From: Bacillota bacterium
Lineage (GTDB): Bacteria > Bacillota > DTU025
DNA length: 64,000 nucleotides
Direction of reading: 5' to 3'
Assembly: GCA_050951805.1 (NCBI GenBank)
Contig: JBMNJT010000005.1
Location: 1 to 64,000, forward strand
Part shown: one piece after another, positions 1,377-19,212 of the stretch
Layout: each line of letters opens with the position of its first letter
Position numbering within the stretch: position 1 is the first letter of the stretch
Position numbers and translations under genes: made by a program
The notes under the pieces: model-generated
Seen by the model: only the letters and a program-made list of their open reading frames with translations
Database searches by the model: none
Told to the model about the DNA's origin: nothing

Positions 1377-3260
1377 AATAGCCCTCCTAGCACATTCGTG
1401 GGCACTAGGTTTCCACGGAGGCCCAATAGGAAAGGACACATGCCCATCTCCATTTCCAGGTATCCTAGTCCCATGTATATACGTCATACTCATACCAGCA
1501 CTCGCGATAATCATCGTATGCGGGCCACCTATATATGTAGTTGAATAGCCATTCCTCATCATTGTCGAGGAATCATGCACTCCTTCGTAGCGCGGCTCCA
1601 ACACGGACAGCATTTCTGCAAGCTGGGCAGCGCCACAGCGTTTGTCTGCGCTGCCCGACCCGTACAAGGGTTCGAACTCATGTCTCAGCTTTTGATCGCA
1701 GACGGCAGAGATGATTTCGGGAACAACTAGAAAGCTTGTGATTTCCTCGCTCGCCATTCCTAGAGCCGTTTTCGCCAAGCCCGAGGCATCACCGGCAACA
1801 GCGTCCAGGGCCAGATCCATAACATCCAGCAGTAATCCCAGTTGCTTCGATGATAGTGATAGTCCATGGGCCGCTGCAATCTTAAACGGATCATCGAAAG
1901 TCATTCCTACCCGGAAACACGTTACCATAAGCACACGTGAATCTCGCTTGCTAATCATTGACTGCCTGCCATATGAGGTGCGGTAGATCTCAAACATCCC
2001 TGTTGGATCTACGTATACCATGGGATTCCCGCCGCAATATGCGTACCAATTCAGCCCGTCCCTCGCCGGATCTCTGCTTATGAACCTCCCTACCTCGGGG
2101 TCATATTACCTGGCCCCGAAGTAGTAGAGCCCTATAGCGCCATCCTCAGGCTTTCCAGTGAATCTGTGCGCTCCGCTGGCCAGCGGCCCTGTTGATGTGG
2201 CAACCAACCCGAACGGTTCATATTCGAACCTCGCTGCGACCTCGCCCGAAGAGTCGGTGATCGCCCTTATGGATCCTAGCAAGTCGGTGTGGCAAAAGTA
2301 GACTTCAGCAGGATCCGAGTCTTGCTGTACTACCTTAGCCAAGTGTTTCCCGTTCAGGACAAGGTAGCATGTGACGAGTCTGTCATACTCCGTCACCGGG
2401 GAAGTGGGCGGGTCGCCCGTGCCGGGATCGTCTGGATCGGGATCATCTGGGTCAGGATCCTCTGGGTCATCAGGCGGTGGAGTCGGCGGATCCTCAATTA
2501 TCGGACCAATCGGATCGACTATTATCGGGTCGCCCGGGATTGCGTTTGGCCCAGCGTTCGAACCCGCAGCCTGCGACATTGTGCGAACCTCGTACACTAT
2601 ATCGTTCCCAGAGTGCAAGGTTATGGTAGTCGTTTCGCCCTGGATCGTCTTTATCCTGCGGCCCATGGCGTCGTACTCGTATTTCGCCAGAGCCACGCCG
2701 TCCACCTTCACCTCGTTCATCAGGCGCTGAGCGCTGTACGCATAATCCGTTCTTGTCTGGCCTTGCGTCTTTGATGTCAACTGCCCGTATGGCCCCCAGG
2801 AGTAGGCTGTCGTCCCCCGGGTCCTAAGGTAATTGCCGGGCAAGTACTGGTACTGCACTGTGCCAGTGTCCGACCAGCTTTCAACCGTTCGATTGCCTGC
2901 CCCGTCATACTGGTAGGTTGCGTTGGCCATTCCCCCGGGCCTGGGAACCTGGGCAAACGTGAGCCTGTTGATCCGGTCGTACCCGTAGTTCAGCTCAAAC
3001 GGAGAGCCCCCATTGATCCCAGATATGCGGGATACATTCCCTTGGGACGTGTACGAGTAGCCAAGTTGCAGTATGTTTTCAAACGGCTGTTGCCTTGTTG
3101 CAGTTATGGACTTCAGCCTGCCCTGGGCATCGGTCGCATAAGCGGTGCTCACCCCGTTGATCGAAGTAGAGCTTGCAAGATGGCCGTTGGCATCGTATGT
3201 AAACCCCACCTGCCCCGGCTGGGACTCAGACCCGTAAGCAGATTGATGTCGCATGAACAC
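1377..3260 (-). pseudogene. 5'-truncated Rhs/YD-repeat protein with Rhs-associated core and C-terminal domain; in-frame TAA at 2106-2108
   Basis: YD repeats (YDANG, YDRINRL, YDGAGNR, YDAMGRR), HTDLLGSIR, YEPFG, then GLYYFGAR*YDPEVGRFISRDP...NWYAYCGGNPMVYVDPTG in one frame. Confidence 0.85.
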
Positions 3261-4267: not shown

Positions 4268-4344
4268 GATTATTGGGCCACCAACCACAGACTTGGACAG
4301 CGTGTATGGGTAGCCGAGGGGCATGCCCCCATCCCTATAGGAAA

Positions 4345-4375
4345 GCGCCGGCAGGGAACCACGCCCCGCCGGCGC
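4345..4375. terminator. GC-rich hairpin between convergent genes
   Basis: GCGCCGGC...GCCGGCGC inverted repeat; no clear U-tract. Confidence 0.35.
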
Positions 4376-4425
4376 CGCCATGCATCTTAGTATCCTCGTC
4401 GATCTACGGCCAGTCTACGCCCTCG

Positions 4426-4935
4426 CTACCATCTATCCATGTGGATCCTTGACTCGTCGTATCTATCAGCCGTCTCCCTCTCCTCTCCGGGTCGGCCCAC
4501 CGACACGATCGACAGGGGAACCACATTGACGGGAATGCCGAGGATCTTCCTCAGATCCTCCACCCGCTCCACAACTGGATGAACTCCAAGCCAGACCGCG
4601 CCCAATCCCAATGCCGTTGCCGCCAGCAGCATGTTCTGCGTGGCAGCTGAACAGTCCTGCACCCAGAATCCATCATACTTCTGCTTTTTCACATCTCCGC
4701 ACACGACAATGGCAACCTGAGCTTGCTTGAGCATCTGCGCGTACTTATGTATCCCCGTAATCTCATTGAGCGTCTCTTTGTCCCTGATCACTATGAACTC
4801 CCACGGTCTCTGGTTGCCAGCTGACGGGGCATGCATCGCCGCCCTCAGTAACTGCTTAACTTCGTCATCGGTTACAGGCTCGGAAGTATACTTGCGAATG
4901 CTGCGCCTGGTTAATATAGCCTCCATGGCATCCAC
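4426..4935 (-). CDS. nitroreductase family protein
   Basis: RRSIRKY, APSAGNQRPWEF, QNMLLAATALGLGAVW motifs; GTG start behind GGGAG. Confidence 0.92.
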   Translation of the reverse strand: MDAMEAILTRRSIRKYTSEPVTDDEVKQLLRAAMHAPSAGNQRPWEFIVIRDKETLNEITGIHKYAQMLKQAQVAIVVCGDVKKQKYDGFWVQDCSAATQNMLLAATALGLGAVWLGVHPVVERVEDLRKILGIPVNVVPLSIVSVGRPGEERETADRYDESRIHMDRW

Positions 4936-5312
4936 TTGCTGACTCCCCCCCAAGTATGAGATGACATCTCGTTATTGGCCGACTCGACACAGCTTAAGCC
5001 GCGTAAGTCAGATAAATACTGCCGAATTCGCTGTGTTCACGTGATAGGCTCCCGTATCGTCCCCCTCCCATGTTCACTCAAGTCGCGCGACATGGGTTCT
5101 CCCGACCAGTGCCACACTCTGCCCATACGAAAACCCGCATGGCATTGCCGCCATCGCCCTCGCAAATCTACGGTTCAAGCAGGATATCGCAGCCTCCAAG
5201 GCGAAGAACAGGCGCTTGGAAGCAAGTAGACTCTACGTGCCTTAATCCGCGCAACGAGCGCCGGGATAATCAGTCACAGCCAACACCTCCGAAACAGCGG
5301 GAGGCGGACCAA

Positions 5313-6299
5313 ATGTTCGGATACACCAAACCTTACGGCCAACACAGCCCGGCCAATGCGGCGAATGTGCCTCGACAAGGGGCCCAGCCATGCCGAAATT
5401 TGGCTGCTAAAGAAACTTGCAGCTACAAAGCCCATTACTGCGGACTCTGTTTCGCTCTTTCGCGCCAATATGGCCCGCTTTGGCGAGCCTGCGCCAATTT
5501 CGACTCCACGCTCCTGCTCCTGCTCATGTCGGCACAGCAGCCGGACGCGCCCACGCTCACAAAAGCCTTTTGTCCATTGGGAGCACCCAGGCGGTATTGC
5601 GTCATAGACGGCGATGAACTCTTCATGAAAATAGGTTCCGCTTTCACAGTCGCCATGGTAGACTTAAAAAGTCAGGATGCGATCATAGACGGCGCCAGGG
5701 CGGCAAGACCGGCACGGCTTTTGGGCAGGCGCGCCTTCGCCCGAGCCGAGAGAGTCCTTGCCGAAAACCACTTCGACGCATCATCTCTTGACGAGATACA
5801 AAAGCGCCAAGGAAAACTGGAATCGATGGCTGTCGAGAATCCCCTGAGCGTTTCCTTTGACGATCTGGCTGCGCCGACCGGGCACGGGCTCGCCAAGGTC
5901 TTCGAATATACGGCCGACCTCGCCGGGCTCCGCCCGAACGCCGAGCCGCTTCGGAGAATAGGCAATGCTGCAGGCAAGATCATCTATGCCGCCGACTGCC
6001 TTGAAGACCTGGAAACCGACCTTGCCCGGGGGCGCTTCAACGGCTTGGCCGCATGTTCCATGGTTGTTCCGGGCACTCTGATCCTAACAGGCGAGGCATC
6101 CGCAGGACTCAAGTACCTACTAGACCGATGCCGGGCCGAGATAGCATACGCTCTTCGGGAGCTAGAGACCGTGCGCTACCGCGCCATAATCGAAAACATA
6201 CTTCTTACATCGCTTCCGCTGCGCGCATCCGAAGTTTTGGCGTCGCGGACGGAATCCGGGCACGAACCAAACCATCACAAGGTGGATGATATAGGATGA
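5313..6299 (+). CDS. DUF5685 family protein (predicted helical isoprenoid-synthase-like fold)
   Basis: MFGY start behind GGAGG; YKAHYCGLC motif; acidic motifs KSQDAIID and YAADCLEDLETDLARGRFN. Confidence 0.8.
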   Translation: MFGYTKPYGQHSPANAANVPRQGAQPCRNLAAKETCSYKAHYCGLCFALSRQYGPLWRACANFDSTLLLLLMSAQQPDAPTLTKAFCPLGAPRRYCVIDGDELFMKIGSAFTVAMVDLKSQDAIIDGARAARPARLLGRRAFARAERVLAENHFDASSLDEIQKRQGKLESMAVENPLSVSFDDLAAPTGHGLAKVFEYTADLAGLRPNAEPLRRIGNAAGKIIYAADCLEDLETDLARGRFNGLAACSMVVPGTLILTGEASAGLKYLLDRCRAEIAYALRELETVRYRAIIENILLTSLPLRASEVLASRTESGHEPNHHKVDDIG

Positions 6300-6769
6300 A
6301 AATCGAATCATTGAAGATAGTCATAGACAGCGACGAGCTCGAGGCCGCCCTCAAATGCATTGAGATGCCGCAGAACGTGAGGATACGTGGCGCTCACTTC
6401 GAACCTGACGAACTCGTAGTCGATCTCTCTGTGCTGGCGCCTATCCCCCTATACCCCTCATTCCACGTCTGTGTGATTCAGGCCGCTGGCCCAACCGTCT
6501 CCTTTCAGGTCTCCACCCCGCTCATGACAGGGCTGGTTGATCGTTTCATATCAAATGCAACAACGAACCTCCCTGATGGCGTAGCGTACCTTGGCAAAGG
6601 CATAGTAAGCCTCGACATACCCACGCTGGCAAATGGCACCGTCAGCTCGATCAACATAAGAGGTATCCAGTTTGAAGCGGGGCACGCCACTGTCGCAGTG
6701 GATGAGATCGACATCGACATCTCAGCCATCACTCAGCTGAGTTCGGTCAACCGACCCGGGTCCGTTTGA
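6296..6769 (+). CDS. hypothetical protein with two internal beta-rich repeats
   Basis: ATGA overlap with DUF5685 stop; IRGAHFEPDELVVDL / IRGIQFEAGHATVAV repeat. Confidence 0.7.
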   Translation: MKIESLKIVIDSDELEAALKCIEMPQNVRIRGAHFEPDELVVDLSVLAPIPLYPSFHVCVIQAAGPTVSFQVSTPLMTGLVDRFISNATTNLPDGVAYLGKGIVSLDIPTLANGTVSSINIRGIQFEAGHATVAVDEIDIDISAITQLSSVNRPGSV

Positions 6770-7457
6770 GGATCGCGAGGCCCCCAAAGTAGGCCGGCCG
6801 GTTCACCAGATACAGCATTGCGCCATAGCCCATGCCGACTACAGGCAGGATAATCCGCATCCAGTCCACGGCCGCTCCGACAACTGTATCGGCTGATATA
6901 TTCGCCAATGCCCAAAACCTCTCGAAAACATGGTAGCTAGTTGCTGCCATCGACCCTACGACATCGGATACCTTAGCGCCCATCAACGTCGCCAGCGCCC
7001 ATATGCGTGCAGGGTATAGAAGGGCATAGCTTAAGAGAATCATCGCCCACCATTTGCCGGCGCTCCAGGTATCGTGCCTCCTGAAAGAGGCCTCGGCCTT
7101 GCTTTTGTCAGTTTCAGTATTCAGGAGGCCAACCTCACATCTATCATCAGCAGCCTCGTCCCCATCAGGCCCGCCCGTCGGCAACATCAACCCGATCGGC
7201 GTGACGAGGAGCAAGGAGTCCAACAACTCTTTCGGGCCATACGCCAGGCCGACCAGAGCATTGAGACCCACAGCCGTCATCGTCGACCAGTGCCTTCCGT
7301 GCCTCGAACCAACAATGGCAATAAGGCTCGCGCTCATGTACTTGAAATATGGCCCGATACCCGGCATGGGCGCAAACACGTGCCACATGATCCCTGCTAA
7401 GGCCATGGCAATAGCTGATTCCGCGAGCGGCCTCGCCCCATTGTTTTTCTTTGCCAC
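6747..7457 (-). CDS. DUF2232/YybS-like integral membrane protein
   Basis: N-terminal ARPLAESAIAMALA resembles YybS; several TM segments; GTG start 1 nt after the upstream stop. Confidence 0.6.
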   Translation of the reverse strand: MAKKNNGARPLAESAIAMALAGIMWHVFAPMPGIGPYFKYMSASLIAIVGSRHGRHWSTMTAVGLNALVGLAYGPKELLDSLLLVTPIGLMLPTGGPDGDEAADDRCEVGLLNTETDKSKAEASFRRHDTWSAGKWWAMILLSYALLYPARIWALATLMGAKVSDVVGSMAATSYHVFERFWALANISADTVVGAAVDWMRIILPVVGMGYGAMLYLVNRPAYFGGLAILKRTRVG

Positions 7458-7458
7458 C

Positions 7459-8466
7459 TCAATCAGGCTCCCAAAACCACGATTCGAACATGTCTTTGCA
7501 GATGGACTCGAGAGCGTGCCTCTCGAAACTTTCGGGGAATGCCGACAATGCCCTGACAGCCTCCTGCTGGAGATCTTCCAAAATGCCCTCGAGCCACTGG
7601 CGAACAGGCCCTTCCTCTAAGAGCACTGACATCTCGATCCCAGCTTGCTTCGCCCCTTCCGCGTCTCGCCGCGCCTGGGCCGAAAGCGCCGCCAGCCGTT
7701 CCTCCCCTACTTGCATCGCAAGGCCGACCATGGGAAATCCGACTCTCTGTTCCTCGAGGTCGCCCAGTGAAGCGCCTTTTGTGTTTGAATCGAACCCTGT
7801 GAGATTGTTGATGTCATTTACCGTCTGAAAAATGAACCCAAGAAACCTTCCATACTTCGCAAGCGCATCGATCTCCTGCGCATTGCCTCCTCCAAGAACC
7901 GCACCTATTGCCAATGACTGTTCCATGAGGGATGCGGTCTTTCCCGAAATCACCCTCACAGCGCAATCAACGGTCGGGGCTCCGCGCCAAGGCATAAGTT
8001 CAAGCAGCTCACCTCGGCACATGTCGTAATGGGCGGCGACAAACCGCTGCCTCGCCCTCCGAGCAGCCTCCCCACGCACGAGATCTTCCAGACCATCTAT
8101 AGCCCGATAAGCCCTGGCTACGAGGAGGTCTCCCATGATAACGGCTCTTTGAGCCCCATACACATGGCAAAACGACGGCTTCCCTCGCCTCAGAGGATCC
8201 CCATCAACGAGGTCGTCATGGATTAACGAGGCTTTGTGGAGCAACTCCACGGCCAGGGCAGCAGGAATCCAAATCTCTTCGTCCTCTCCCCCGCACATCA
8301 CGAACGCGGTCTGCAGCAGGCAAGGACGAAACCTCATTCCGCCGCCTACAGCAGCCCAGTACATTTTCTCGAATTCGGGATCCAGGTCACTGCAATCCGC
8401 AAGCGCCTGCTCAACCCTGCGCACAATGGGACCGAGCCGCTCCTGATAAAGCGCACGCGTATCCAT
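7459..8466 (-). CDS. polyprenyl synthetase family protein with degenerate second aspartate-rich motif
   Basis: GGMRFRP, ELLHKASLIHDDLVDGDPLRRGKP (FARM), GKTASL, FQTVNDINN in place of FQxxDDxLD. Confidence 0.9.
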   Translation of the reverse strand: MDTRALYQERLGPIVRRVEQALADCSDLDPEFEKMYWAAVGGGMRFRPCLLQTAFVMCGGEDEEIWIPAALAVELLHKASLIHDDLVDGDPLRRGKPSFCHVYGAQRAVIMGDLLVARAYRAIDGLEDLVRGEAARRARQRFVAAHYDMCRGELLELMPWRGAPTVDCAVRVISGKTASLMEQSLAIGAVLGGGNAQEIDALAKYGRFLGFIFQTVNDINNLTGFDSNTKGASLGDLEEQRVGFPMVGLAMQVGEERLAALSAQARRDAEGAKQAGIEMSVLLEEGPVRQWLEGILEDLQQEAVRALSAFPESFERHALESICKDMFESWFWEPD

Positions 8467-9998
8467 CAGATTACCTCTGCGTCCTTCATGGCTTCACGTT
8501 TTTCCTCAACTTCAGCATTGGAAAGCCTTCCCCTCTCAGTTATCTGCAACGCTTTCGAGGCCCCTGTCTGAGGATCTGTAATAACAGCATCCATTCTCAT
8601 GTTCGAATCATACTTATAGACGACTTCTATCGGATAGTTGCGCGGCTTGGGCCCGTCCAACTCCAGCACAGCCTCGCCTATCTCGGTGCAGTTGGCAGGA
8701 TCGCTGTCCTCGCCCTGCAGAACCACCATCTCCACAATCCGCTGCCCGTCCTCGTGAACATAATAGGTCTCCTTCCGTTCGGCCGGAACGGGCGAGTTCT
8801 TGGGGATCATTATCTTGTTAATATCCTGGCCTGTCGCAGAATCGACCAGAAGTATGCCATAGCTATGGCTTGTCACGTCCTCTATTTTGGTATCGCGAAG
8901 CCTACGCCCGGCGTCGGTCAGGATTATGTCCGGATCTCCCTTGCCCGCAAGCATTATTCCAGCATAGATAGCGGCCCCGTGGGCGACTGCCTCATCCGGG
9001 TTGATGCTGACCGTGGGTTCTTTTCCCGAAGCCTTCCTAACGAGTTCGCACACCGCAGGCATCCTGGTCATCCCGCCCACAAGCAACGTCTGGTCGATGT
9101 CGTTCCAGGTCAACTCTGCCGATTTGAGGACCGTATCGAGCAATAGCTCTGACCTGCCCAAAAGGTCTGCGGTCATCTCCTCAAATTGCTCCCTCGAAAG
9201 CTCGACGGTGTGCCGTTTCCCCTGGGCGCTCACGGCTATCTTGGCAGACTGGCGAGTCGACAGCGCCTTCTTGGCCGCCTCCGCTCTTTGGCGCAGGTCC
9301 TGCAGAGCCTCTGGGTCCTCGAGAAGGTCGATCCCGTGCTCCTCCTCGAACTTGCGAGCGCAATGCATTATGATGCGATCGTCAAAATCCTTGCCCCCAA
9401 GCATGTGGTCGCCGTCGGTCGCAACGACCCTGATCTTGCCTTCTTCAACCTCCAGGATCGTTACGTCGAAAGTCCCGCCCCCGAGGTCATACACGATGAT
9501 GCGCTGGTTGATGTCGGGGTTGCTCATTCCGTAGGCGAGCGCGGCCGCAGTGGGCTCGTTCACGATCGCAAGCACATTGAGCCCGGCAATCTCCCCCGCA
9601 TCCATCGTGGCCTGTCTTCGCGCATCATCGAAGTAGGCCGGGACCGTGATTACTGCTCCGGGAAGTTCCGTGCCGAGCAAGACTTCTGCATCCGTCACCA
9701 GTTTCTTGATGATTAGCGCTGAAAGGTCTTCCGGGCGGAACTCGGTTTCGCCGTGAACAAATACATAGTCTGCATTTCCCATCTGCCTCTTCACGAACTC
9801 GACTACATTGCCAGGGTCGGCAACAGCGCTGTTTTTTGCGATGGTGCCCACTGTGAACTGGTTTTCTTGATCGAACATGATCACCGAGGGGGTGATGCGC
9901 TCTCCCTCTTTGTTCGGCACAATCTCGGGTTTGCCGTAATCATTGAGCACGGCGAGACACGAAAAAGTGGTCCCGAGGTCTATACCTACTGCCTTCAT
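8466..9998 (-). CDS. Hsp70-family protein (non-canonical, 510 aa, no alpha-helical lid)
   Basis: GIDLGTT, TVPAYF, NEPTAAA, DLGGGTFD, LVGGMTRMP, NPDEAVAHGAA. Confidence 0.95.
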   Translation of the reverse strand: MKAVGIDLGTTFSCLAVLNDYGKPEIVPNKEGERITPSVIMFDQENQFTVGTIAKNSAVADPGNVVEFVKRQMGNADYVFVHGETEFRPEDLSALIIKKLVTDAEVLLGTELPGAVITVPAYFDDARRQATMDAGEIAGLNVLAIVNEPTAAALAYGMSNPDINQRIIVYDLGGGTFDVTILEVEEGKIRVVATDGDHMLGGKDFDDRIIMHCARKFEEEHGIDLLEDPEALQDLRQRAEAAKKALSTRQSAKIAVSAQGKRHTVELSREQFEEMTADLLGRSELLLDTVLKSAELTWNDIDQTLLVGGMTRMPAVCELVRKASGKEPTVSINPDEAVAHGAAIYAGIMLAGKGDPDIILTDAGRRLRDTKIEDVTSHSYGILLVDSATGQDINKIMIPKNSPVPAERKETYYVHEDGQRIVEMVVLQGEDSDPANCTEIGEAVLELDGPKPRNYPIEVVYKYDSNMRMDAVITDPQTGASKALQITERGRLSNAEVEEKREAMKDAEVI

Positions 9999-10026
9999 AA
10001 ATCGTCACTCCTCCACACCAAACAAC

Positions 10027-10698
10027 TCATGCCAATTCCTGTCTGGCCCTGGCTATCAGCACCATCATCCGTTCGGCTTCCTGCCTCTTTTCAAGATCGG
10101 GATGGTTAACTCTGGCCCGATAGATATTGTACTGATCGAGCAGCATCTGCTCCTTCCGATCACGGCTAGCAGACCTGGGAATGCCCAGTTGGCTCCATAC
10201 ATCTTCGTGCCCATCGCGCTCCTCTAGCGGAGGAGGAAGCACGTCAGGCCTCCCGCGCCCCTCCCGGGGGCGGTCCTCGAACTGGCCCTGCCCTCCTGCA
10301 CTCGATAGCGCAAACATCAACACCCTTTTTCTCCTGGCCACAAGCTTGTCCCCATAGTAGATCCCCAGGTTGCAGTAGGCCTCAAAGTAGCCTGCCTTAT
10401 CGAATCCAAATGCGTCATAGGGCATGAAAACGGTGAAATCATCGTATGTGCTATCCCGATAAGGAGGGGTGAAATCCTCGGCTGTGCACGCATTTCCTGC
10501 AACATCTGCATATTCATCGATTGCTCCGCGCACGGGGGAATTGTCTGTATAGTAAAACCAATAGATTATGGTCATCTCACGACCTGCGCCGGGATTGTAT
10601 CCTCTCACTGTCATTGAAGAATGAATAACAAGTCCGTTTCTGCCGCCCATAGATACGTCAAAATCCGCCCAAATCCTATGTATTTCTGCAGTTGTCAT
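10027..10698 (-). CDS. two-domain protein: N-terminal beta-rich domain plus C-terminal degenerate J-domain with HPD
   Basis: C-terminus DVWSQLGIPRSAS...RARVNHPDLEKRQEAERMMVLIARARQEL parallels the DnaJ J-domain (YxxLGV...HPD...A...I..AY..L); lies between two Hsp70 genes. Confidence 0.75.
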   Translation of the reverse strand: MTTAEIHRIWADFDVSMGGRNGLVIHSSMTVRGYNPGAGREMTIIYWFYYTDNSPVRGAIDEYADVAGNACTAEDFTPPYRDSTYDDFTVFMPYDAFGFDKAGYFEAYCNLGIYYGDKLVARRKRVLMFALSSAGGQGQFEDRPREGRGRPDVLPPPLEERDGHEDVWSQLGIPRSASRDRKEQMLLDQYNIYRARVNHPDLEKRQEAERMMVLIARARQELA

Positions 10699-10719
10699 TT
10701 ACCGCTCTCCCGCTCGCGG

Positions 10720-12255
10720 CTAATCCACCCGCATTCTGTCCATGAGCCGCTTCTTTTCTGCCACTTCAGAATCTGTCAGCCTGCCCCTTTGGGATATGTG
10801 CAGTTCGGCGCGTCTTCCTGTCTTCTTGTCTTCCATATAGGCATGTATCATCATGTTGGCATCGTACTCATATGTCACTTCCACCGGGTATCCTTTGTGC
10901 ACAGGCCTCTCGAAAAGGAGCTTAGTCTCGCCTATGGCCACACAGTTTTCGGGATCTCTGTCCTCTCCCTGAAGGACGACAAAATCCACGCCTTCCTGCC
11001 CATGGGAGACCGTGTAGAAGCGGTCGACAATCCGCGCCGGGATAGGAGTGTTTTTGGCTATCATTATCTGGTTATACAGTTCATTTGTCATCGTATCCAT
11101 CAGTATGATGCCGAACGAATGAGACGTCACATCGGTGACCACGGTATTTGCAAGCCTGCGTCCCTCCGTAGTCTTGAGGATACTTGCATCTCCACGCTGC
11201 CCCATGATAATCCCCGCCTGAATCGCAGCACCTATTGCAACGGCCTCATCAGGGTTTATGGCCTGGTTTGGCGCCTTGCCCGACATCGACTCGAGCATCT
11301 CACGGACCATGGGCATCCTCGTGGAACCACCGACAAGGAGTATGGTGTCTATATCTTTCCATGAGGCTTTGGCGCTTGCCATGACAGACTCCACCAAGAG
11401 CCTCGTCCGTTGGAGCAAGTGGCCGGAAGCCTCTTCAAACTCGCTCCGCGTTATCTCATGCGACAGACGCTTGCCTGCAGCACTCACGCTGATCTTCGCA
11501 GATTCAAGGGTCGACAGAGTTTTCTTGGCAGACTCGGCGCGCTGCCTCAGGTCCATCTGGTTTTCAAGATCCTCCAGAAGATCAACTCCGTGTTCTTTCC
11601 TGAAAGCTTCGTTGACAAGGATCATGATCTGGTCATCGAAATCGTTCCCGCCCAACATGTGATCGCCATCGGTGGCCACCACCCTTATCTCACCGTGCGA
11701 GACATCCATGATGGTGACGTCGAAGGTTCCCCCGCCCAGATCGTAAACGAGGATTCTCTGCTTGGAAGCGTTATTGCCCATCCCATAGGCCAGTGCCGCC
11801 GCGGTAGGCTCGTTTATTATCCTCAGTGGATTGAGCCCTGCGATCTTTGCCGCGTTGAGCGTCGCTTGCCTTCTCACATCGTCGAAATAGGCTGGAACCG
11901 TGATCACAGCATCGGTGATGCCCTCGCCGAGGAGGGCCTCAGCATCCTGAACGAGCTTCTTCAAGATGAAGGCCGAGATCTCCTCAGGCCCGTACTCCCG
12001 CCCATCACGGAGAAACATATAGTCTGCATTCCCCATCTGACGTTTGACAAACTCCACGACATTGTATGGATCTGCAACAGCGGCATTTTTCGCCACCCTA
12101 CCGACGACGACAGAATCATCATCGCCGAAATAGACAACGGAAGGCGTCGTCCGTTCGCCTTCTGCATTTGGCACGATCTCTGCCTTTCCATATTCATTGA
12201 GGACCGCCAAAGTGGAGAAAGTTGTTCCAAGGTCAATCCCTACCGCCCGGCCCAT
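10720..12255 (-). CDS. Hsp70-family protein (non-canonical, 511 aa, no lid)
   Basis: GIDLGTT, TVPAYF, NEPTAAA, DLGGGTFD, LVGGSTRMP, NPDEAVAIGAA. Confidence 0.95.
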   Translation of the reverse strand: MGRAVGIDLGTTFSTLAVLNEYGKAEIVPNAEGERTTPSVVYFGDDDSVVVGRVAKNAAVADPYNVVEFVKRQMGNADYMFLRDGREYGPEEISAFILKKLVQDAEALLGEGITDAVITVPAYFDDVRRQATLNAAKIAGLNPLRIINEPTAAALAYGMGNNASKQRILVYDLGGGTFDVTIMDVSHGEIRVVATDGDHMLGGNDFDDQIMILVNEAFRKEHGVDLLEDLENQMDLRQRAESAKKTLSTLESAKISVSAAGKRLSHEITRSEFEEASGHLLQRTRLLVESVMASAKASWKDIDTILLVGGSTRMPMVREMLESMSGKAPNQAINPDEAVAIGAAIQAGIIMGQRGDASILKTTEGRRLANTVVTDVTSHSFGIILMDTMTNELYNQIMIAKNTPIPARIVDRFYTVSHGQEGVDFVVLQGEDRDPENCVAIGETKLLFERPVHKGYPVEVTYEYDANMMIHAYMEDKKTGRRAELHISQRGRLTDSEVAEKKRLMDRMRVD

Positions 12256-12813
12256 CTAGTCATCCACCCTTTCGTGGCCATCCCCGTCCCAGCGGGCAAC
12301 CGCAACCATCTGATGGCGCAAAACCTTGTCATCCTTGATGAAGCCGTCCTTCATCACTTTGACAACCTTCCCGTCTTCTCCAGGGCTGTTCGCGCGTTCC
12401 ACCCTTACAGCTCGCTGGCACTGAGGATCAAAGGCGTCCGATTCGCAAGCCATGCGCTCTATGCCGCGCCGATAGAGGACTTCGAGGACCTCTTCGAGGA
12501 CATATTCAAGGCACTCCCGGGCAACTTCGTTTTCGGGTGCTTGGACATCATCGCGCGAGATGTAGCTCTTGATATTGTCGTATAATAAAAGCAGGTCGGC
12601 ATAGACCTCATTCATGCGCCTATCGACGAAATCATTCTTGAACATGTCAAGCTCCTCATAGAGCTTGTTAAAAGCCTTGTCTTTAGCCTCATCATACTCG
12701 ATCTTCTCCTCGAACATGGCGATGAGAACATCGAGTTTCTCATGAATGCAAGGCGTCTGCACATCCGCAAGACCAATCGTATCATCGTCCATTCTGCCTT
12801 GGCCAGCGTCCAC
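12256..12813 (-). CDS. grpE: GrpE-family nucleotide exchange factor
   Basis: coiled N-terminus, LLLLYDN, FDPQCQRAV, VVKVMKDGF...VLRHQMVAV; abuts the Hsp70 gene. Confidence 0.85.
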   Translation of the reverse strand: MDAGQGRMDDDTIGLADVQTPCIHEKLDVLIAMFEEKIEYDEAKDKAFNKLYEELDMFKNDFVDRRMNEVYADLLLLYDNIKSYISRDDVQAPENEVARECLEYVLEEVLEVLYRRGIERMACESDAFDPQCQRAVRVERANSPGEDGKVVKVMKDGFIKDDKVLRHQMVAVARWDGDGHERVDD

Positions 12814-12857
12814 TCAGGATTCTCCTTTCCCCATGAGTTGCACATGCTTTTGCGCCC

Positions 12858-13292
12858 CTATCCCGAACAGGATTGGCAGATCGAATACACGCAGAGTCCG
12901 GCAACGCACTGCTCACACAGTTCATCATTATCGCAGGGTCCATCGCCTCCTGTCATTTTCGGACCAGGACTAGGCCCAGGGATAGGAAGCGGCGCATCAT
13001 CTCCGGGATCAGCCGGCCGTGCCTTGCCCCCCATGGTATATATAAAGGACTCGAGCTCTCCTTCCCGGACAAGCAGGTCTTCTAGGGTAGCGAGAAACGA
13101 GTGGCTATGCAGATACATGCCCGCTTGATCGGCTTTGAAGGCTTCCATGAGCAGATCATAAACGAGCTGCCCCAGTCCATGGTCGGAAAGGGTGCGGGTG
13201 AAACGTAACGTGTTTTCACGCCACGAGGCGGAATCGCAATTAAAATTGTCCCACATTACAGGGCCTATCGCCAACGACGTGTTCAGAACCAT
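12858..13292 (-). CDS. small protein with Pro/Gly linker and Cys-rich hydrophobic C-terminal tail
   Basis: GGAGGATGGAG RBS; ends PCDNDELCEQCVAGLCVYSICQSCSG; first gene of the Hsp70 operon. Confidence 0.75.
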   Translation of the reverse strand: MVLNTSLAIGPVMWDNFNCDSASWRENTLRFTRTLSDHGLGQLVYDLLMEAFKADQAGMYLHSHSFLATLEDLLVREGELESFIYTMGGKARPADPGDDAPLPIPGPSPGPKMTGGDGPCDNDELCEQCVAGLCVYSICQSCSG

Positions 13293-13672
13293 AACTCCAT
13301 CCTCCGTCCGCCTCCCAAGGGCGCTTCACAGATTTCATAACTAGTTTATGGTTTCTACAACCATCTATGGAATCCTTCACTATTTGCGTCCAAAGGCAAA
13401 GCAGAACATGACGGACGCAGGCAGAGTTACCCATAAATCACCTGCCTGTTCAACCAGGATGGGTCCCCGCGCTCTTCACTCATGCAGCTTGATCCTCGAC
13501 AGGCAACGTCTTGGCAATACTCCCTTCCGCCAGACCCGCTAACCTACGTTCATGCTATGGCTGCAGAAGCAAACACCGCTTGAATTTTCTCGCGCTGGCA
13601 GTGTACACTTAGAATTGCTAGTCCACAAATTGCCCGAGCAACCACGTGCTCAGGATACGAGGAGGCATGATC

Positions 13673-14194
13673 ATGTTTTCCGAAAACATGCTTGCAGAGC
13701 TTAACAAGCAGTATAACTATGAACTATACTCAGGCTATCTTTATATGGCCATGGAGGCCTACTTCCACGGCAAGGGCCTATCAGGTTTCGCCAACTTCTT
13801 CAAGGTACAAACTGAAGAAGAACGGGCCCACGCGCGCATCTTCTACGAGTTCATCATTCGCAAAGGTGGGACCATTACCCTTGATTCCATCGAAAAGCCC
13901 GAGGCTGACTTCGACAGTCCGCTCGATCTGTTCAAGAAAGCCCTAGCGCACGAGGAGTTTGTCACCTCCAGAATCAACAAGCTGGTAGATATCGCCCTTG
14001 AGGACAAAGACCACGCAACCAACAGCTTTCTCCAGTGGTTTGTGGATGAACAAGTAGAAGAGGAAGAGAACTTCCAAGGCATAGTCCAAAAGCTCGAGCT
14101 AATCGGCAACGACGCGCACGCCCTTCTGATGCTCGATGCCGAACTTGGGCAGAGGGTCTTCACAGTGCCCGCTCCTCTGGCCCAGGCACAGTAA
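13673..14194 (+). CDS. ftnA: non-heme ferritin
   Basis: NYELYSGYLY, EEERAHA, HEEFVT, FLQWFVDEQVEEE ferroxidase motifs; GAGGAGG RBS. Confidence 0.93.
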   Translation: MFSENMLAELNKQYNYELYSGYLYMAMEAYFHGKGLSGFANFFKVQTEEERAHARIFYEFIIRKGGTITLDSIEKPEADFDSPLDLFKKALAHEEFVTSRINKLVDIALEDKDHATNSFLQWFVDEQVEEEENFQGIVQKLELIGNDAHALLMLDAELGQRVFTVPAPLAQAQ

Positions 14195-14252
14195 GGGCCC
14201 AAGGTTTTATCAGTTGTCCATCAATTGCGGGCATTCAAAGCTAGAATGAGTT

Positions 14253-14306
14253 GAGGCACAGCCCGAAGCGCCAATGTGGTCGACATGTTGGCAAAGGCTG
14301 TGCCTC
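14253..14306. terminator. long hairpin, probable (bidirectional) intrinsic terminator
   Basis: GAGGCACAGCC...GGCTGTGCCTC outer stem with inner GCCAA/TTGGC stem, followed by TTTCTCT; between convergent genes. Confidence 0.65.
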
Positions 14307-14349
14307 TTTCTCTCCTGATCTGCCCTAGGCATATCGGTTGCGCAGTCTG

Positions 14350-14997
14350 CTAATCGGGGGATGAAACCGATGTGAGAGTGTAGCTGAATTCGATATCAGG
14401 CATGATGGTGGATGTGAAGGAGACAACTCCGATACCCTTCTTAAAAACCCTCGTCTCGTGATAGAGGCCATCGGGCATCTCAGGATCAGGAGCAGTATAC
14501 TCCACCTTGCAGTAGTCCAACCTGTCCTCGGCATCGACCCCGGTCTCAGTAATCTCAGCGTCGACACGGTTTCCATTCACTGATTCAAAAGACCACTTCT
14601 GCCCCTTTTCCAGCGGGGCTTTGAGCATCACGAGGCCGTCGATCCTATGCGGAAACACAACGCCTTTGTGGAGTATGCGCTCCACAACCTCATCCCCTCC
14701 GAAAACATACTGCAGTTGAAAGCCGAAGTCCTGTTCTGACTCGCCTCCGGACATGTCTTCCACCATGCCTGATATCTGGTGTACCACATCCCCTTTGGAG
14801 CGCACTTCCGTAATGCTATCTAAGATCATTCTGTGCCCATATTCGGCGAATCCTGAGTATACCCAGGTGAAGCCCGTTTTCTCCGGAAAATAGCTCCTCA
14901 ATTCGTTGCTGGAAGCCTTCTGTCGAAAACACCCTACAACGCCCAAAAGCAACACGCTAGCCACAGCGATGGCTGAGAAAGCCCTTTTGGTGTCCAT
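14350..14997 (-). CDS. putative lipoprotein
   Basis: signal peptide with lipobox-like LGVVGC; beta-rich body ending VFKKGIGVV. Confidence 0.75.
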   Translation of the reverse strand: MDTKRAFSAIAVASVLLLGVVGCFRQKASSNELRSYFPEKTGFTWVYSGFAEYGHRMILDSITEVRSKGDVVHQISGMVEDMSGGESEQDFGFQLQYVFGGDEVVERILHKGVVFPHRIDGLVMLKAPLEKGQKWSFESVNGNRVDAEITETGVDAEDRLDYCKVEYTAPDPEMPDGLYHETRVFKKGIGVVSFTSTIMPDIEFSYTLTSVSSPD

Positions 14998-15313
14998 CCC
15001 CAAACCCGCCTTTCATCCAATGGATAATTGCCTGAGCCAATCCATAACTATGCTGCCGCGAAGCCTTCCTCTTATTCATTGTCCGGCGCGACCCCTTGAT
15101 TCCGTAATCCCACTGCACGGGTGCTCTTGCAGTCCCCACTACTCAACCGGATCCAATGGCTCTGATAAGGTGCCCCACACGAATCCATATGCGCTTCGAT
15201 CTTGCCCAATCTCTGCCGCCAACTTAGACACTACAAGCCTGCTAGGGCCATGGTTTGACAACAGGCTTCCGCGTCGATAAACTGACGTGGTAAGCCAATA
15301 AAGCGGGCATGAG

Positions 15314-16141
15314 GTGATACCGATCAGAGCCTACTATTCTATTGGGGAAATATCGAGGCTTTTCGGCATGTCGATACAAACCCTAAGGCACTACGACAGA
15401 ATTGGGCTCCTCCGCCCAGCCTATGTGAACCATGAAAACAATTACAGGTACTACTCCCATGAACAATTTCTTCAGATCAAGCTGATAAAGTACCTGAAAA
15501 CCCTCGGCTTCTCATTGGCCCAGATCCGGGACATCGTCAACCAGGACCTGTCGTCCGAGGTGATAATCGAACTCCTCCGTGAGCAAGAAGAGGCGGTCAA
15601 TGACAGAATAGACCAGCTCCTCGCCTTGCGGCAAGACATGCGCGCCTTCGAAGAAAGGCTGGCCGGCCTCGCAGAACGGACCTTTGGAGAGGCTTTCTTG
15701 GATAGCAAGCCTGAACGAAAAGTCATAGCCTACGATTACATCAACAAACCGAATGCAAACTTGGCCGTTGGCATGAGGAAGATTCTCTCGGATATCGAGA
15801 GAGAACACAGTGTGCTCAAGTATGAGCCGGGTATGCTAGTATCATATGCCGAATTCGCAGCCTCAGGAAGAGTAGAGTTCAAGAAGATCATAGTCGAGTT
15901 GGACGATGAACTCGACTATCCTCACCACAACATATTGAGACTTCCCGCAGGTCCCCACGCCACTATCATATATGAGGGCGCCACAGAAGAGGGCCAAAAA
16001 TACTACGGCAAAATAGTAGAGTTCATATCCGACCATGGCCTAAGCCCGAAGGGCGATTTCATTCACGCTATAGCCGTCTCCTATGTTAACAGCAATGGCA
16101 CAGGAGTGTCTCTGCACGAGGTATCGGTTCTCACGGAATGA
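15314..16141 (+). CDS. MerR-family transcriptional activator with GyrI-like effector domain (BmrR/BltR type)
   Basis: YSIGEISRLFGMSIQTLRHYDRIGLLRP...NNYRYY HTH; C-terminal LPAGPHATIIYEG. Confidence 0.92.
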   Translation: MIPIRAYYSIGEISRLFGMSIQTLRHYDRIGLLRPAYVNHENNYRYYSHEQFLQIKLIKYLKTLGFSLAQIRDIVNQDLSSEVIIELLREQEEAVNDRIDQLLALRQDMRAFEERLAGLAERTFGEAFLDSKPERKVIAYDYINKPNANLAVGMRKILSDIEREHSVLKYEPGMLVSYAEFAASGRVEFKKIIVELDDELDYPHHNILRLPAGPHATIIYEGATEEGQKYYGKIVEFISDHGLSPKGDFIHAIAVSYVNSNGTGVSLHEVSVLTE

Positions 16142-16156
16142 TCTTCCCCCGTCAGC

Positions 16157-16187
16157 TTGACTCTATACCAACAATAGACTGTAAGAT
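16157..16187 (+). promoter_or_regulatory. MerR-type promoter/operator of the MATE gene
   Basis: TTGACT-19 bp-TAAGAT with TCTAT-N7-ATAGA dyad overlapping the spacer. Confidence 0.85.
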
Positions 16188-16212
16188 CTCCTGTTAGGGA
16201 GGCCTTTCAGTC

Positions 16213-17550
16213 GTGAGCAAATTCTTGCATTATACCGTCCCATCCGTGATGGGATGTTTAGTAACTTCATTGTATCTTGTCGTAGACGGCGTCTTCATTG
16301 CCAGGGGAGTTGGAGAAACAGCAGTAGCTGCCGTAACATTGGTGCTGCCTCTCACAATGGCCTTTGTGGCATTGAGCATGATCTTCTCTGTAGGCGGAGG
16401 CAATCTCGTATCAACTTCGAGAGGCGCAGGCGACCAAGCCCGGGCGGTCAATGTTTTCAGAGAGTCAATATACATGCTGCTTTCGATAGGAATTATCTTC
16501 AGCATCCTAGGAACCCTGTTCGCGGATGAAATAGCGATAATGCTGGGTGCAACGGGTGAACTCGTTAGCCCGGCCGCTGAATACACGAAATACTACATGC
16601 TTTTCACCGTGCCCGTCCTGCTCGCCATCGCATTGAGCACCTTCATACGACACGACGGATCTCCAAAGTTGTCGATGCGTTCTATGCTGTACGGAGCAGT
16701 CACCAACATCGTGCTCGACTATGTTTTCGTGTTCCCCCTCCAGATGGGGCTGCGCGGCGCCGCAATAGCTTCAGGGCTGGGCCAAATTGTCACCGTAATC
16801 ACGTGCATGAAACATTTCATCGAGCGACGCGGGATCCTGAGAATAGGCAAAGCCTCATTCGAATGGGAAGATATCAAAGATATATTCGTCATCGGGTTCC
16901 CTTCCTTTCTCACTGAGGTATCTTACTCCGTAATGATGTACCTGCACAATTTGGCAGTAATCAGCCAAGTCGGCGAGATAGGAGTGACCGCCTACGGTAT
17001 AGTCAACTACATCAACAACATCTCCTACATGGCCTTGTTCGGCATCGGCCAGGGGATTCAACCAATGGTCAGCTACTACTACGGACGAGGCAAGTTCGAC
17101 AAGGGACGCCAGCAGTATATATACGGGATAAAAGCGTCGCTTGTGATGTCAGTCTTGTTCCTGGTTATCTGCTTATTCGTCGGAAGACCACTTATAATGA
17201 TATTCGCCTCGTCGGAAGACGTGATCGACCTGGGTTACACGATACTGACATATCTGAACCTGGCCTACGTTCTGCTGGGCGTCAATCTGACTACGCAGAT
17301 GTATCTGCAATCCATGCACATGCCCAGATACGCCAATATCATCTGTGTGCTAAGAGGATTCGTATTCGTCAAGATTGGCCTTGCCTTGCTGCCGAAGGTG
17401 TTCGGGGATGCAGGAATCTGGGGCACACTATTGTTTGCCGAAGGAATGTCCCTAATTACGGCGCTCGTCATAGTCAGCGCCAGCGCCGAACCGGAGCAAT
17501 ATCCATCTCCGATAGGGAATAGCCAGACAGATCATGCTAGCAGACCCTGA
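16213..17550 (+). CDS. MATE family efflux transporter
   Basis: LYLVVDGVFIARGVG, NIVLDYVFVFPLQMGLRGAAIASGLGQ, GIQPMVSYYYG; about 12 TM segments. Confidence 0.93.
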   Translation: MSKFLHYTVPSVMGCLVTSLYLVVDGVFIARGVGETAVAAVTLVLPLTMAFVALSMIFSVGGGNLVSTSRGAGDQARAVNVFRESIYMLLSIGIIFSILGTLFADEIAIMLGATGELVSPAAEYTKYYMLFTVPVLLAIALSTFIRHDGSPKLSMRSMLYGAVTNIVLDYVFVFPLQMGLRGAAIASGLGQIVTVITCMKHFIERRGILRIGKASFEWEDIKDIFVIGFPSFLTEVSYSVMMYLHNLAVISQVGEIGVTAYGIVNYINNISYMALFGIGQGIQPMVSYYYGRGKFDKGRQQYIYGIKASLVMSVLFLVICLFVGRPLIMIFASSEDVIDLGYTILTYLNLAYVLLGVNLTTQMYLQSMHMPRYANIICVLRGFVFVKIGLALLPKVFGDAGIWGTLLFAEGMSLITALVIVSASAEPEQYPSPIGNSQTDHASRP

Positions 17551-17622
17551 AAACCGGCGCGATTCGCCTAAAACCCCGCACCAGCGCCGAACTTTGCACC
17601 ACGTATGCCGAGTATGGAGTGA

Positions 17623-18762: not shown

Positions 18763-19212
18763 TGCATGTTAAGTATAACTCCGCACCATCCATCGCGCAT
18801 TATGACCTTACTATCCCACCCCAACAGGTCGAAAGCCCCTTTACAGCACTATATCGGGGCAATTGGGTTGGAACGGAGTTTTTGCGACGAATGACAAAGG
18901 CTTGCATTCAAGATGAGAATATGGATCCCTACGAGTCTAATCCGATGCCGATTATGTGCATTTGAGTCGTCGCCAAACTCGCATTGTCTGATGCCCAGTC
19001 CCTAGCTGCCGGTATTCGCGCACAATCAAATCTGCTGGCGCCGCGGTCATTTGAATGGTAACATTGAGAGCAGGTATAGACATGAAAATGCGGGGCCGAA
19101 AGGCATCGACAACATCCGCCGGCAAGCGTCAGTTGCATGCATTCATGCACCGCAGAGTGTCTGCACGAATAGCGCACTCACCAAATATAGGTGCGCCGAG
19201 GAGGAAGCTTTG

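Follow-up and report, generated by a model that had tools for sequence, protein, structure and literature searches.

We analyzed a 64,000-nucleotide (nt) stretch of DNA from a Bacillota bacterium (assembly GCA_050951805.1, contig JBMNJT010000005.1; this whole stretch is called the window in what follows), which carries nine closely spaced genes at positions 5313-13292. Seven of them form a row on the minus strand that converges on two plus-strand genes. In its own direction, the row encodes a protein with a Cys-rich C-terminal tail (the Cys-tail protein), a divergent GrpE, a first short Hsp70 (Hsp70-A), a J-like adaptor, a second short Hsp70 (Hsp70-B), a polyprenyl synthase-like protein, and a polytopic membrane protein, and the plus-strand genes encode a DUF5685 protein and a partner of 157 amino acids (aa), termed p157. 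Our central conclusion is that this module is a lineage-specific, expanded form of a widespread and undescribed bacterial module, the core of which consists of DUF5685 and a Cys-tail protein.

DUF5685 and its Cys-tailed partners

The DUF5685 protein is encoded at 5313..6299 on the plus strand (328 aa from an MFGY start, in an open reading frame (ORF) that is open from 5070). It belongs to Pfam family PF18937, which was matched with 116 bits over residues 110-382 of the long ORF, at a gathering cut-off of 26.7 bits. A model calculated by AlphaFold2 (AF2) from a 22-sequence alignment had a mean predicted local distance difference test score (pLDDT) of 89.9 and a predicted template modeling score (pTM) of 0.89, and it predicts a trans-prenyltransferase fold with conserved Asp-rich motifs. 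Foldseek matched the model to 12 entries of the PDB at E<=1e-3, ten of them MoeN5 chains and the others a geranylgeranyl diphosphate synthase (GGPPS, 3lmd) and an octaprenyl diphosphate synthase (3wjn). With VIA-align, the top match was the polyprenyl synthase 4jxy (Z 20.3, root-mean-square deviation 3.7 Å, 260 residues), and the 50 matches listed were all trans-prenyl diphosphate synthases or MoeN5, with Z scores of 17.2-20.3 over model residues ~28-308, which is well over the caution level of the tool for helical proteins. Sequence identity to the structural neighbors was 11-20% among the 50 matches listed, and Pfam keeps the families apart. When a DUF5685 profile was compared with the PDB sequences, 1wy0 was the best relevant match, with an E-value of 0.16 that is not significant alone, and the second motif of the profile aligned with the second aspartate-rich motif (SARM).

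In the trans-prenyltransferase fold, two Asp-rich motifs bind the Mg2+ that holds and ionizes the allylic diphosphate. The corresponding elements of DUF5685, D122xxxD126 and D228xxxD232xxxD236, sit at the positions of the first aspartate-rich motif (FARM) and of the SARM. Conservation was examined in 156 sequences, namely the 150 best of 6,891 representatives and six module-type sequences; the family comprises at least these 6,891 representatives at 50% clustering. Residues C43, C46, C87, D122, D126, E170, G221, Y225, D228, D232, and N243 were invariant in all 156, and D236 was kept in 155. Beyond the common fold, DUF5685 has an N-terminal MFGY...YCGLC segment, a beta hairpin, and the three invariant cysteines, the conservation of which suggests a Zn or Fe-S site.

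Among 401 sampled genomes of the phylum, PF18937 was found in 47, with a single locus in 46 and two loci in G190. To describe the family outside the module, we considered all 43 non-module loci, which come from 42 genomes. In 31 of these loci, the adjacent downstream ORF on the same strand had at least five Cys in its last 40 aa, and 26 of the 31 Cys-tailed ORFs contained an HPD motif within the first 80 residues. A frame scan added six loci with a Cys-tailed ORF that the crude gene caller had missed, and one further locus (L082) carries a fusion, so that a total of 38 of the 43 loci are coupled to a Cys-rich tail. As a control, we took the 248 ORFs of this DNA that lie at a distance of over 3 kb from DUF5685; only one of them had such a tail. 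The five uncoupled loci comprise two with contig ends within 300 nt, two with DUF5685 fragments only, and one (L085) without a tail. The statement in the preliminary description of this DNA that DUF5685 genes often neighbor J-domain and Cys-rich-tail proteins is thus borne out, the pairing being nearly universal. The single partner that was scanned with Pfam (at L078) contained DnaJ and TPR matches, and the alignment of the partners shows a J domain, a TPR-like region, and a Cys-rich tail throughout. Cys count and spacing vary widely between the tails, from 5 to 11 or more. In 20 of the 43 loci, these genes are followed by that of a small membrane protein, in each case of a single family (A3).

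Some of these ordinary loci (L066:6167-10065 and L074, and also L065, L067, L069, and L070) have further features. A full-length Hsp70 gene lies near DUF5685 in two of the first 20 loci, and several loci encode a protein of 130-140 aa that has a hydrophobic stretch at its N-terminus and a Zn-ribbon (CPxC...CPxC) at its C-terminus. At the fusion locus (L082:8053-10988, genome G165), DUF5685 continues into a long Cys/Asp-rich tail, and next come a gene for a protein of 161 aa that contains a hydrophobic stretch and is unmatched by Pfam, an N-D-x-N-N synthase-like gene, and a gene for a Peptidase_A24-like membrane protein.

In the window, the tail resides on the 144-aa Cys-tail protein (12858..13292, minus strand), which consists of a helical N-domain, a Pro/Gly/Asp linker, and a C-terminal tail with the pattern C-x2-C-x4-C-x4-IC-x2-C. 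C126, C129, C134, C139, and C142 are invariant in the five aligned Cys-tail sequences (alignment A6). The preliminary description had tentatively placed this protein and DUF5685 in one reaction, and complex modeling of the components supports binding of DUF5685 to the Cys-tail protein: the interface score ipSAE was 0.84 (0.85, 0.84, and 0.84 in the individual runs) versus 0.34 for the best of three controls. The runs shared at least 35% of their contacts, and the pLDDT of the Cys-tail partner was at least 64. The inputs were our own alignments (22 rows for DUF5685, 5 rows for the Cys-tail protein) with a riding Zn, and the benchmark counts, according to which the ipSAE mark is reached by 58 of 80 solved complexes and by 2 of 110 mismatched pairs, are approximate in this setting. 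On the DUF5685 side, the confidently modeled interface comprises residues 181-183, 187, 218, 222, and 264-279; on the side of the Cys-tail protein, it comprises residues 5-18 and 55-68, among which D55, Y60, L61, S63, and L67 are invariant.

The expanded module and its components

The J-like protein is the most specific marker of the expanded form and was present in five of the 401 genomes, G000 included. All nine genes are syntenic in G360, which belongs to the same genus, and in G334, which belongs to the same family. In G057, a member of a second family, the genes for GrpE, one Hsp70, a 162-aa Cys-tail protein, the J-like, the synthase-like, and the membrane protein form a row, and DUF5685 lies 5 kb off. 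G208, a low-quality metagenome-assembled genome (MAG; 85% completeness, 450 contigs), has the Cys-tail protein, the J-like N-domain, the synthase-like protein, the membrane protein, and DUF5685, with no Hsp70 or GrpE gene on the 11-kb contig. Its synthase-like gene (L016/L024:5611-6642) is read as two ORFs of 95 and 228 aa, owing either to a frameshift or to faulty assembly. When one genome was scanned for each species, 16 loci were found, seven of which contain module genes, all in MAGs of uncultured Bacillota; the other nine share just the J-like N-domain.

From a metagenome scan with the synthase-like subfamily, 80 loci were kept; the 14 best of them belong to the subfamily, four of these being from the window's own species. 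Many of the 80 loci are uninformative because the FARM pattern also catches ordinary synthases. Three metagenome contigs (L121, L122, and L125) carry the full module, two (L126 and L127) carry a partial module that is cut at the contig ends, and L129 has all genes but p157 on one strand with DUF5685 last. L130 contains only the synthase-like gene, DUF5685, and a gene for a 256-aa protein of the Cys-tail type, which combines a Cys-tail-type N-domain with zinc ribbons and a Cys-rich tail. These variants indicate that the co-traveling core is DUF5685 with a Cys-rich tail, often accompanied by the synthase-like enzyme, and that the Hsp70 set was added. Thus, the linkage of Hsp70s, GrpE, J-like, synthase-like, membrane, and Cys-tail proteins with DUF5685 recurs in related MAGs and metagenome contigs, and we rejected chance adjacency because the same gene set recurs in other genomes. 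Of the self-contained module proposed in the preliminary description, the conserved linkage stands, whereas the genes turned out to be an elaboration of the wider triad of DUF5685, J-Cys-tail protein, and membrane protein rather than a stand-alone system.

Directly upstream of the minimal set of L130 (L130:5865-9976) lie genes that, judging from motifs read by eye, resemble those of an E1 (ThiF-like), of a JAB/MPN peptidase, of an E2-like protein, and of a membrane protein rich in Gly. Beside argC at L105 (G099:C16), only remnants are left, namely a short piece of DUF5685 and 97 aa of the module-type membrane protein, which suggests that the module has decayed in G099.

Within the row, the gaps from the Cys-tail gene to the membrane gene are 44, 0, 21, 28, -1 (TGATG), and 1 nt, so that ORFs and junctions are as first described, with seven genes, gaps of at most 44 nt, and the overlaps. 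Hsp70-A (10720..12255, minus strand, 511 aa, 469 bits with Pfam HSP70) and Hsp70-B (8466..9998, minus strand, 510 aa, 466 bits) are lidless paralogues. Taken together, their HSP70 matches cover profile positions 1-514 and 1-509 of 599, 1-514 being the match of Hsp70-B; both proteins end just past the beta substrate-binding domain, and alignment to the DnaK of the genome shows no lid. They are 59.4% identical to each other and 44.7% (Hsp70-A) and 44.4% (Hsp70-B) identical to this DnaK. Both contain a 14-residue insertion, which in Hsp70-A precedes the interdomain linker, and the linker VLLD is changed to VVTD and KIED, respectively. With the model of housekeeping DnaK (NF001413), they scored 478.6 and 464.2 bits at a cut-off of 648 and ended at positions 507-511 of 625. 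The GrpE protein (12256..12813, minus strand, 185 aa, GTG start), the stop codon of which abuts the Hsp70-A start, matched Pfam GrpE with 63.1 bits, above the gathering cut-off of 25.8 bits, and stayed under all GrpE equivalog cut-offs of NCBIfam, as did all other chaperone and synthase matches of the NCBIfam scan with theirs.

Short Hsp70 frames (510-534 aa, at least 58% identity to Hsp70-A) occurred only in four of the 401 genomes, with two copies each in G000, G360, and G334 and one in G057; the next-best matches of Hsp70-A were ordinary DnaKs of ~610 aa with at most 48% identity. Conserved linkage of such Hsp70s was one of the points on which the preliminary description had staked its proposal, and the restriction of the short Hsp70s to module genomes in this sample answers it in the affirmative. 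A further 631-aa frame with partial HSP70 matches (105 bits, profile positions 133-372) was noted at G000:C2:120027-121100 (L004, L007). The genes were also correctly distinguished from the housekeeping hrcA-grpE-dnaK-dnaJ operon. A housekeeping chaperone operon was rejected because the 649-aa DnaK of the genome is encoded on another contig, hrcA is absent, and no CIRCE match was found anywhere in the window with up to three mismatches allowed.

The J-like adaptor (10027..10698, minus strand) was modeled by AF2 with a pLDDT of 86.8 as a beta-sandwich (residues 3-133), a disordered linker (137-164), and C-terminal J-like helices with a putative divergent J domain (VNHPD). The J-like protein remained unmatched by Pfam DnaJ (PF00226) at E<=0.1. 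Its C-terminus aligned by hhalign with the J domains of the ordinary DUF5685 partners (probability 86.9%, E 4e-6), relative to which it has a five-residue insertion ahead of the HPD. Foldseek gave zero matches to the J-like model at E<=1e-3 and beyond that only generic beta-sandwiches, such as a Wzt carbohydrate-binding domain at E 1.3e-3, from which we drew no function, and the Atlas search with the N-domain returned only "hypothetical" clusters and weak leads. This N-domain (residues 1-135; loci L025-L033; signature YDDFxxFxPY) is a mobile domain without a Pfam family. It ends CHAT-TPR proteins of Chloroflexota MAGs, lies within a caspase C14/BACON protein of Bacteroidales, occurs in tandem in proteins of Pyrinomonadaceae MAGs with a putative signal-peptide-like start, and follows a Zn-ribbon and a hydrophobic, putative transmembrane stretch in a Prevotella MAG; the start and the stretch were judged by eye.

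The synthase-like protein (7459..8466, minus strand) matches the polyprenyl_synt family (PF00348, 144.6 bits) and has an intact FARM, DDLVDGDPLRRG, which aligns with the FARM of 1wy0, 5xn5, and 7mxz, as in a trans-isoprenyl diphosphate synthase (here abbreviated trans-IDS). At the site of the chain-elongating SARM and of isopentenyl diphosphate binding, however, it reads FQTVNDINN in place of FQxxDDxxD, and in alignments to solved synthases GGGMRFRP replaces GGKRxRP and QRVGFP replaces DKTTYP; these changes are kept across the subfamily. All synthase equivalogs of NCBIfam stayed under cut-off (best 168 versus 450). The N-D-x-N-N motif and a C-terminal WFW are kept in all six aligned subfamily members, including the distant L082, and also in L130, where the gene lies beside DUF5685 and the Cys tail. 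According to section 7 of PMC5331326, ComQ retains the FARM and requires NDxxx or GDxxx as a "pseudo-SARM"; the same section states that an N-to-D exchange in the pseudo-SARM strongly cuts activity and that DDxxD is unfit for peptide prenylation. The combination of FARM and such a pseudo-SARM was found in all six members, and no ComQ model was among the 16 NCBIfam matches. In trans-IDS-like peptide prenyltransferases, the SARM is repurposed to recognize the acceptor (section 2.4 of PMC13290415, a 2026 review). Given the ComQ-type pseudo-SARM and the changed diphosphate-binding positions, the synthase-like protein may be a transferase rather than a synthase. For the "locally made polyprenyl-PP" of the preliminary description, this means that the assignment to PF00348 with its FARM holds, whereas synthesis has become doubtful. 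Other synthase-like genes with ND-x-N(N/D) (L132, L134, and an FQIINDLND group) had no DUF5685 on the contig DNA examined.

The gene for the 236-aa membrane protein (6747..7457, minus strand, GTG start), the last of the row, comes directly after the synthase-like gene wherever a module locus extends to this point. Its proposed likeness to DUF2232 could not be upheld, as no Pfam or NCBIfam family was matched at E<=0.1; the J-like, Cys-tail, and p157 proteins likewise had zero Pfam matches at this threshold. A word-indexed search with the membrane protein found 14 homologues, all of them close relatives, unnamed, and without a Pfam domain. The p157 gene (6296..6769, plus strand) overlaps the end of the DUF5685 gene by 4 nt (ATGA) and shares a 23-nt overlap of 3' ends with the membrane gene. 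p157 was found only in the window's own family of genomes, where it stands by DUF5685 in L014/L019, L015/L021, and L022, and it is missing from L016/L017. Its Atlas neighbors are hypothetical or "DUF4403" (0.93-0.94), with weaker matches to LmeA, DUF1439, and YpmS clusters (0.76-0.79, LmeA scoring 0.79). LmeA, DUF1439, and YpmS are lipid-binding families, and p157 is possibly a lipid-binding protein, which we note as a lead only.

Public sequencing runs that contain this stretch number 22, of which 15 are recorded as RNA, in 11 studies; the labels are sludge, anaerobic digester, and activated sludge metagenomes. Contigs from four RNA runs (three studies, at least 95% likeness) span the locus and run across all junctions within the minus-strand row, which is compatible with expression and with nothing beyond that. 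The RNA-library contigs end between 13197 and 13428 and restart at 13460-13791. This break upstream of 13292 is only a hint of a transcript 5' end, and the intergenic region 5' of the row (13293..13645, minus strand), where the RNA contigs stop, likely contains promoter and 5' end, on weak grounds. Promoter and terminator scans gave 10 and 10 sites versus 5.5 +/- 2.0 and 7.8 +/- 3.4 in shuffled sequence and were not used. The flanking genes (RCC1-repeat protein, RHS fragment, nitroreductase, ferritin, MerR, MatE, and DegV) are unrelated to the cluster; the 629-aa RCC1-repeat protein and the 384-aa RHS-repeat fragment lie upstream of it, at 132-3260 of the window.

Proposed mechanism and alternative explanations

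We tentatively propose that prenylation of the Cys-rich tail anchors the tail protein to the membrane and that a private Hsp70/GrpE/J-like machine serves this process, a reading that we consider quite possible rather than probable. DUF5685 would bind an allylic prenyl diphosphate via Mg2+ on its two DxxxD motifs and move the prenyl group to the cysteine thiols of the tail, and its three-Cys site would perhaps hold Zn or an Fe-S cluster. The ComQ-like protein could add a second kind of prenyl group or supply the donor. With a lipid on its tail, the Cys-tail protein would then be anchored at the membrane, close to the dedicated membrane protein. The J-like adaptor would recruit the two lidless Hsp70s, which the private GrpE would recycle. 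The Hsp70s would have one of two roles: to hold the hydrophobic tail protein in a competent state until it is lipidated and inserted, or to remodel a client that is located at the membrane. In the ordinary loci, J domain and tail are on one protein, which the housekeeping DnaK would serve; in the window, the two are split and private Hsp70s would have been added.

A bolder version of this proposal strikes us as rather doubtful. In this version, DUF5685 would be the first bacterial enzyme dedicated to prenylating protein cysteines; it would lipidate the cysteine-string tails of J-proteins and thereby tether Hsp70 co-chaperones to the membrane through prenyl anchors in thousands of anaerobic bacteria; as part of this joint claim, the lineage of the window would have gained the pair of lidless Hsp70s, the GrpE, and a second, ComQ-like transferase.

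Several points weigh against tail prenylation served by private chaperones. The mechanism is inferred at every step. In the complex model, the Cys-tail protein sits with its N-domain on a surface of DUF5685 (residues 181-187, 218-222, and 264-279), and the tail is not placed confidently in the active site, and this N-domain showed no similarity to the J-TPR-Cys partners of the ordinary loci (probability 0.16%). The membrane protein of the module (A2) and the membrane partner of ordinary loci (A3) were aligned by hhalign with a probability of 41.8% only, and neither of the two local hidden Markov models detected the other set at E<=1e-3. All characterized trans-IDS-like peptide prenyltransferases target tryptophan, not cysteine, according to section 2.4 of the above-mentioned review (PMC13290415), and the synthase-like enzyme may still elongate chains. 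The HPD motif is found in the J-like proteins of the window, G360/L014, and L020 and is replaced by SPD or SAD in L015, L022, and L017; as the interdomain linker of the Hsp70s is altered as well, the chaperone cycle of the module may be unconventional, judging from these residues. The RNA contigs cross the convergent junction too and give neither strand nor level, so that they do not prove a single transcript and could also stem from DNA carry-over. Finally, many tails are acidic (for example, CCECMGGD) and could bind metal, and the three cysteines of DUF5685 could hold an Fe-S cluster.

Instead of modifying a protein, DUF5685 and the synthase-like protein could serve to produce or alter a free prenyl lipid or a free terpenoid that the membrane protein holds or exports, with the Cys-tail protein as scaffold, carrier, or regulator and the Hsp70s aiding folding or assembly. 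MoeN5, a lipid-on-lipid prenyltransferase of moenomycin synthesis, made up ten of the 12 Foldseek matches of DUF5685, the remaining two were chain-elongating synthases, and the top VIA-align matches were of the same kinds. Two enzymes with an isoprenoid fold beside a membrane protein, with one other PF00348 gene in the genome, would also suit this explanation, as would the weak leads of p157 to lipid-binding families. Nevertheless, we regard it as unlikely. It leaves unexplained why DUF5685 is coupled to a Cys tail in 38 of 43 loci with a J-domain protein as the usual partner and why the Cys-tail protein docks on DUF5685 via invariant residues; moreover, the ordinary loci have no synthase or other biosynthetic gene nearby.

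Less likely still is a role in metal or Fe-S handling, in which the tail binds a metal or cluster, the J-like protein, Hsp70s, and GrpE act like HscB and HscA, and the three cysteines of DUF5685 are the cluster site. HscA and HscB are a precedent for a dedicated Hsp70/J pair, and the NCBIfam HscA models scored 349-371 bits with the module Hsp70s, which is under cut-off. Cys, Asp, and Glu abound in the tails, DUF5685 has its three invariant Cys, and a ferritin gene neighbors the module in the window and in G360; this ferritin linkage is absent, however, from G334, G057, and G208. Among 14 control genomes, PF18937 was found only in Thermotoga maritima, which is an anaerobe and also counts on this side. 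On the other hand, the number and spacing of the tail cysteines are too variable for defined metal sites, and as an argument only, this wide variation fits a lipidated "cysteine string" better. Metal handling would also leave the prenyltransferase fold, the Asp-rich motifs, the ComQ-like enzyme, and the membrane protein without a role.

The ComQ-type pseudo-SARM raises the thought that the Cys-tail protein is a precursor in the manner of ribosomally synthesized and post-translationally modified peptides, its N-terminal domain serving for recognition and its C-terminal part forming the core that is prenylated like ComX by ComQ, cleaved, and released. In the complex model, it is indeed the N-domain rather than the tail that docks on the enzyme, as a leader peptide would, and a Peptidase_A24-like gene stands beside the L082 copy. 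We consider such a peptide system improbable, as the window cluster contains no protease or exporter and the ordinary tails end J-TPR proteins of 190-240 aa rather than small precursors. Furthermore, a search within 4300-20000 found no ComX-like precursor with an acceptor Trp and no comP or comA, no two-component sensor lies nearby, and the tails have no conserved Trp.

Lastly, the conflict system envisaged in the preliminary description, here a defense system built on the Hsp70 triad, can draw on the J-like N-domain in CHAT and caspase proteins, the E1/JAB/E2-like genes beside L130, and the RHS fragment 2 kb away, and yet it is very improbable, since PADLOC-DB 2.0 returned zero families for all nine proteins at E<=0.01, the housekeeping flanks are syntenic and stable in the genus, the cluster has no nuclease, toxin, or mobile-element gene and the Pfam-scanned neighbors no recognizable mobile-element gene, and DUF5685 occurs in 47 of 401 genomes, mostly as a single locus. 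A defense island was rejected on the grounds of the missing PADLOC match and the stable flanks.

Significance and comparison with known systems

The tail prenylation proposed here assigns a testable function to DUF5685, a large family of unknown function. If it is true, a Cys-directed enzyme with the trans-IDS fold would open a new peptide-lipidation chemistry, and private lidless Hsp70s tied to a lipid-handling module would be a new specialization of Hsp70. The pairing of a J domain with a Cys-rich tail would suggest that lipidation as a means of bringing J-proteins to the membrane arose not only in eukaryotes but in bacteria too, as a prokaryotic counterpart, if the proposal holds, of farnesylated Ydj1/DNAJA and the palmitoylated cysteine-string protein. 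Among the papers listed by a literature search (supplements not covered), there was no description of DUF5685, of its J-Cys-tail partner, or of an Hsp70 operon with prenyltransferase-fold enzymes, and no bacterial prenylation system for cysteine-string J-proteins; DUF5685 appeared only as a name in a list. A passage of PMC8669142 describes the existence of a protein farnesyltransferase in prokaryotes as "largely unknown".

The module resembles the housekeeping hrcA-grpE-dnaK-dnaJ operon in that it groups genes for Hsp70, GrpE, and a putative co-chaperone of the J type. It differs from it by the absence of hrcA and CIRCE, by lidless Hsp70s with an altered linker and ~44% identity to DnaK, and by the absence of the DnaJ Zn-finger and C-terminal domains. 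With HscA/HscB, it would have in common that an Hsp70 and a J-protein of its own serve a single Cys-rich client; unlike there, IscU, IscS, and Fdx are missing, and prenyltransferase-fold enzymes and a membrane protein are found instead. DUF5685 itself is like MoeN5 and the medium- and long-chain trans-prenyl synthases in its predicted fold over ~240-260 residues (Z 17-20) and in the Asp-rich motifs at equivalent helices, and unlike them in its identity of 11-20%, the extra N-terminal segment, the beta hairpin, and the three invariant cysteines.

The closest parallels lie in peptide prenylation and in lipid-anchored J-proteins. As in ComQ/ComX, PalQ, and ChrPC, a protein with polyprenyl-synthase fold that keeps the FARM and has NDxxx for the SARM is encoded beside its putative substrate, with a site near the C-terminus. 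The candidate acceptor is, however, the Cys-rich tail of a 144-aa cytoplasmic protein and not the Trp of a small secreted peptide, and in contrast to ComQ/ComX there is no comP/comA, the constant partner is DUF5685 as a second and far more divergent enzyme, and Hsp70s are attached. The lipidated J-proteins of eukaryotes, Ydj1/DNAJA and DNAJC5, likewise link a J domain to a C-terminal or Cys-string lipid anchor, through which Hsp70 is brought to a membrane, the lipid being putative in the bacterial case. Ydj1/DNAJA is farnesylated. The cysteine-string protein DNAJC5 is described as palmitoylated. In eukaryotes, the lipid is attached by alpha/beta CaaX prenyltransferases or by DHHC acyltransferases, none of which are proteins of the trans-IDS fold, and in the window, unlike in these J-proteins, the tail belongs to a different protein than the J-like domain. 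In this sense, the module shares a principle with ComQ/ComX and with the lipidated J-proteins of eukaryotes and is a member of neither.

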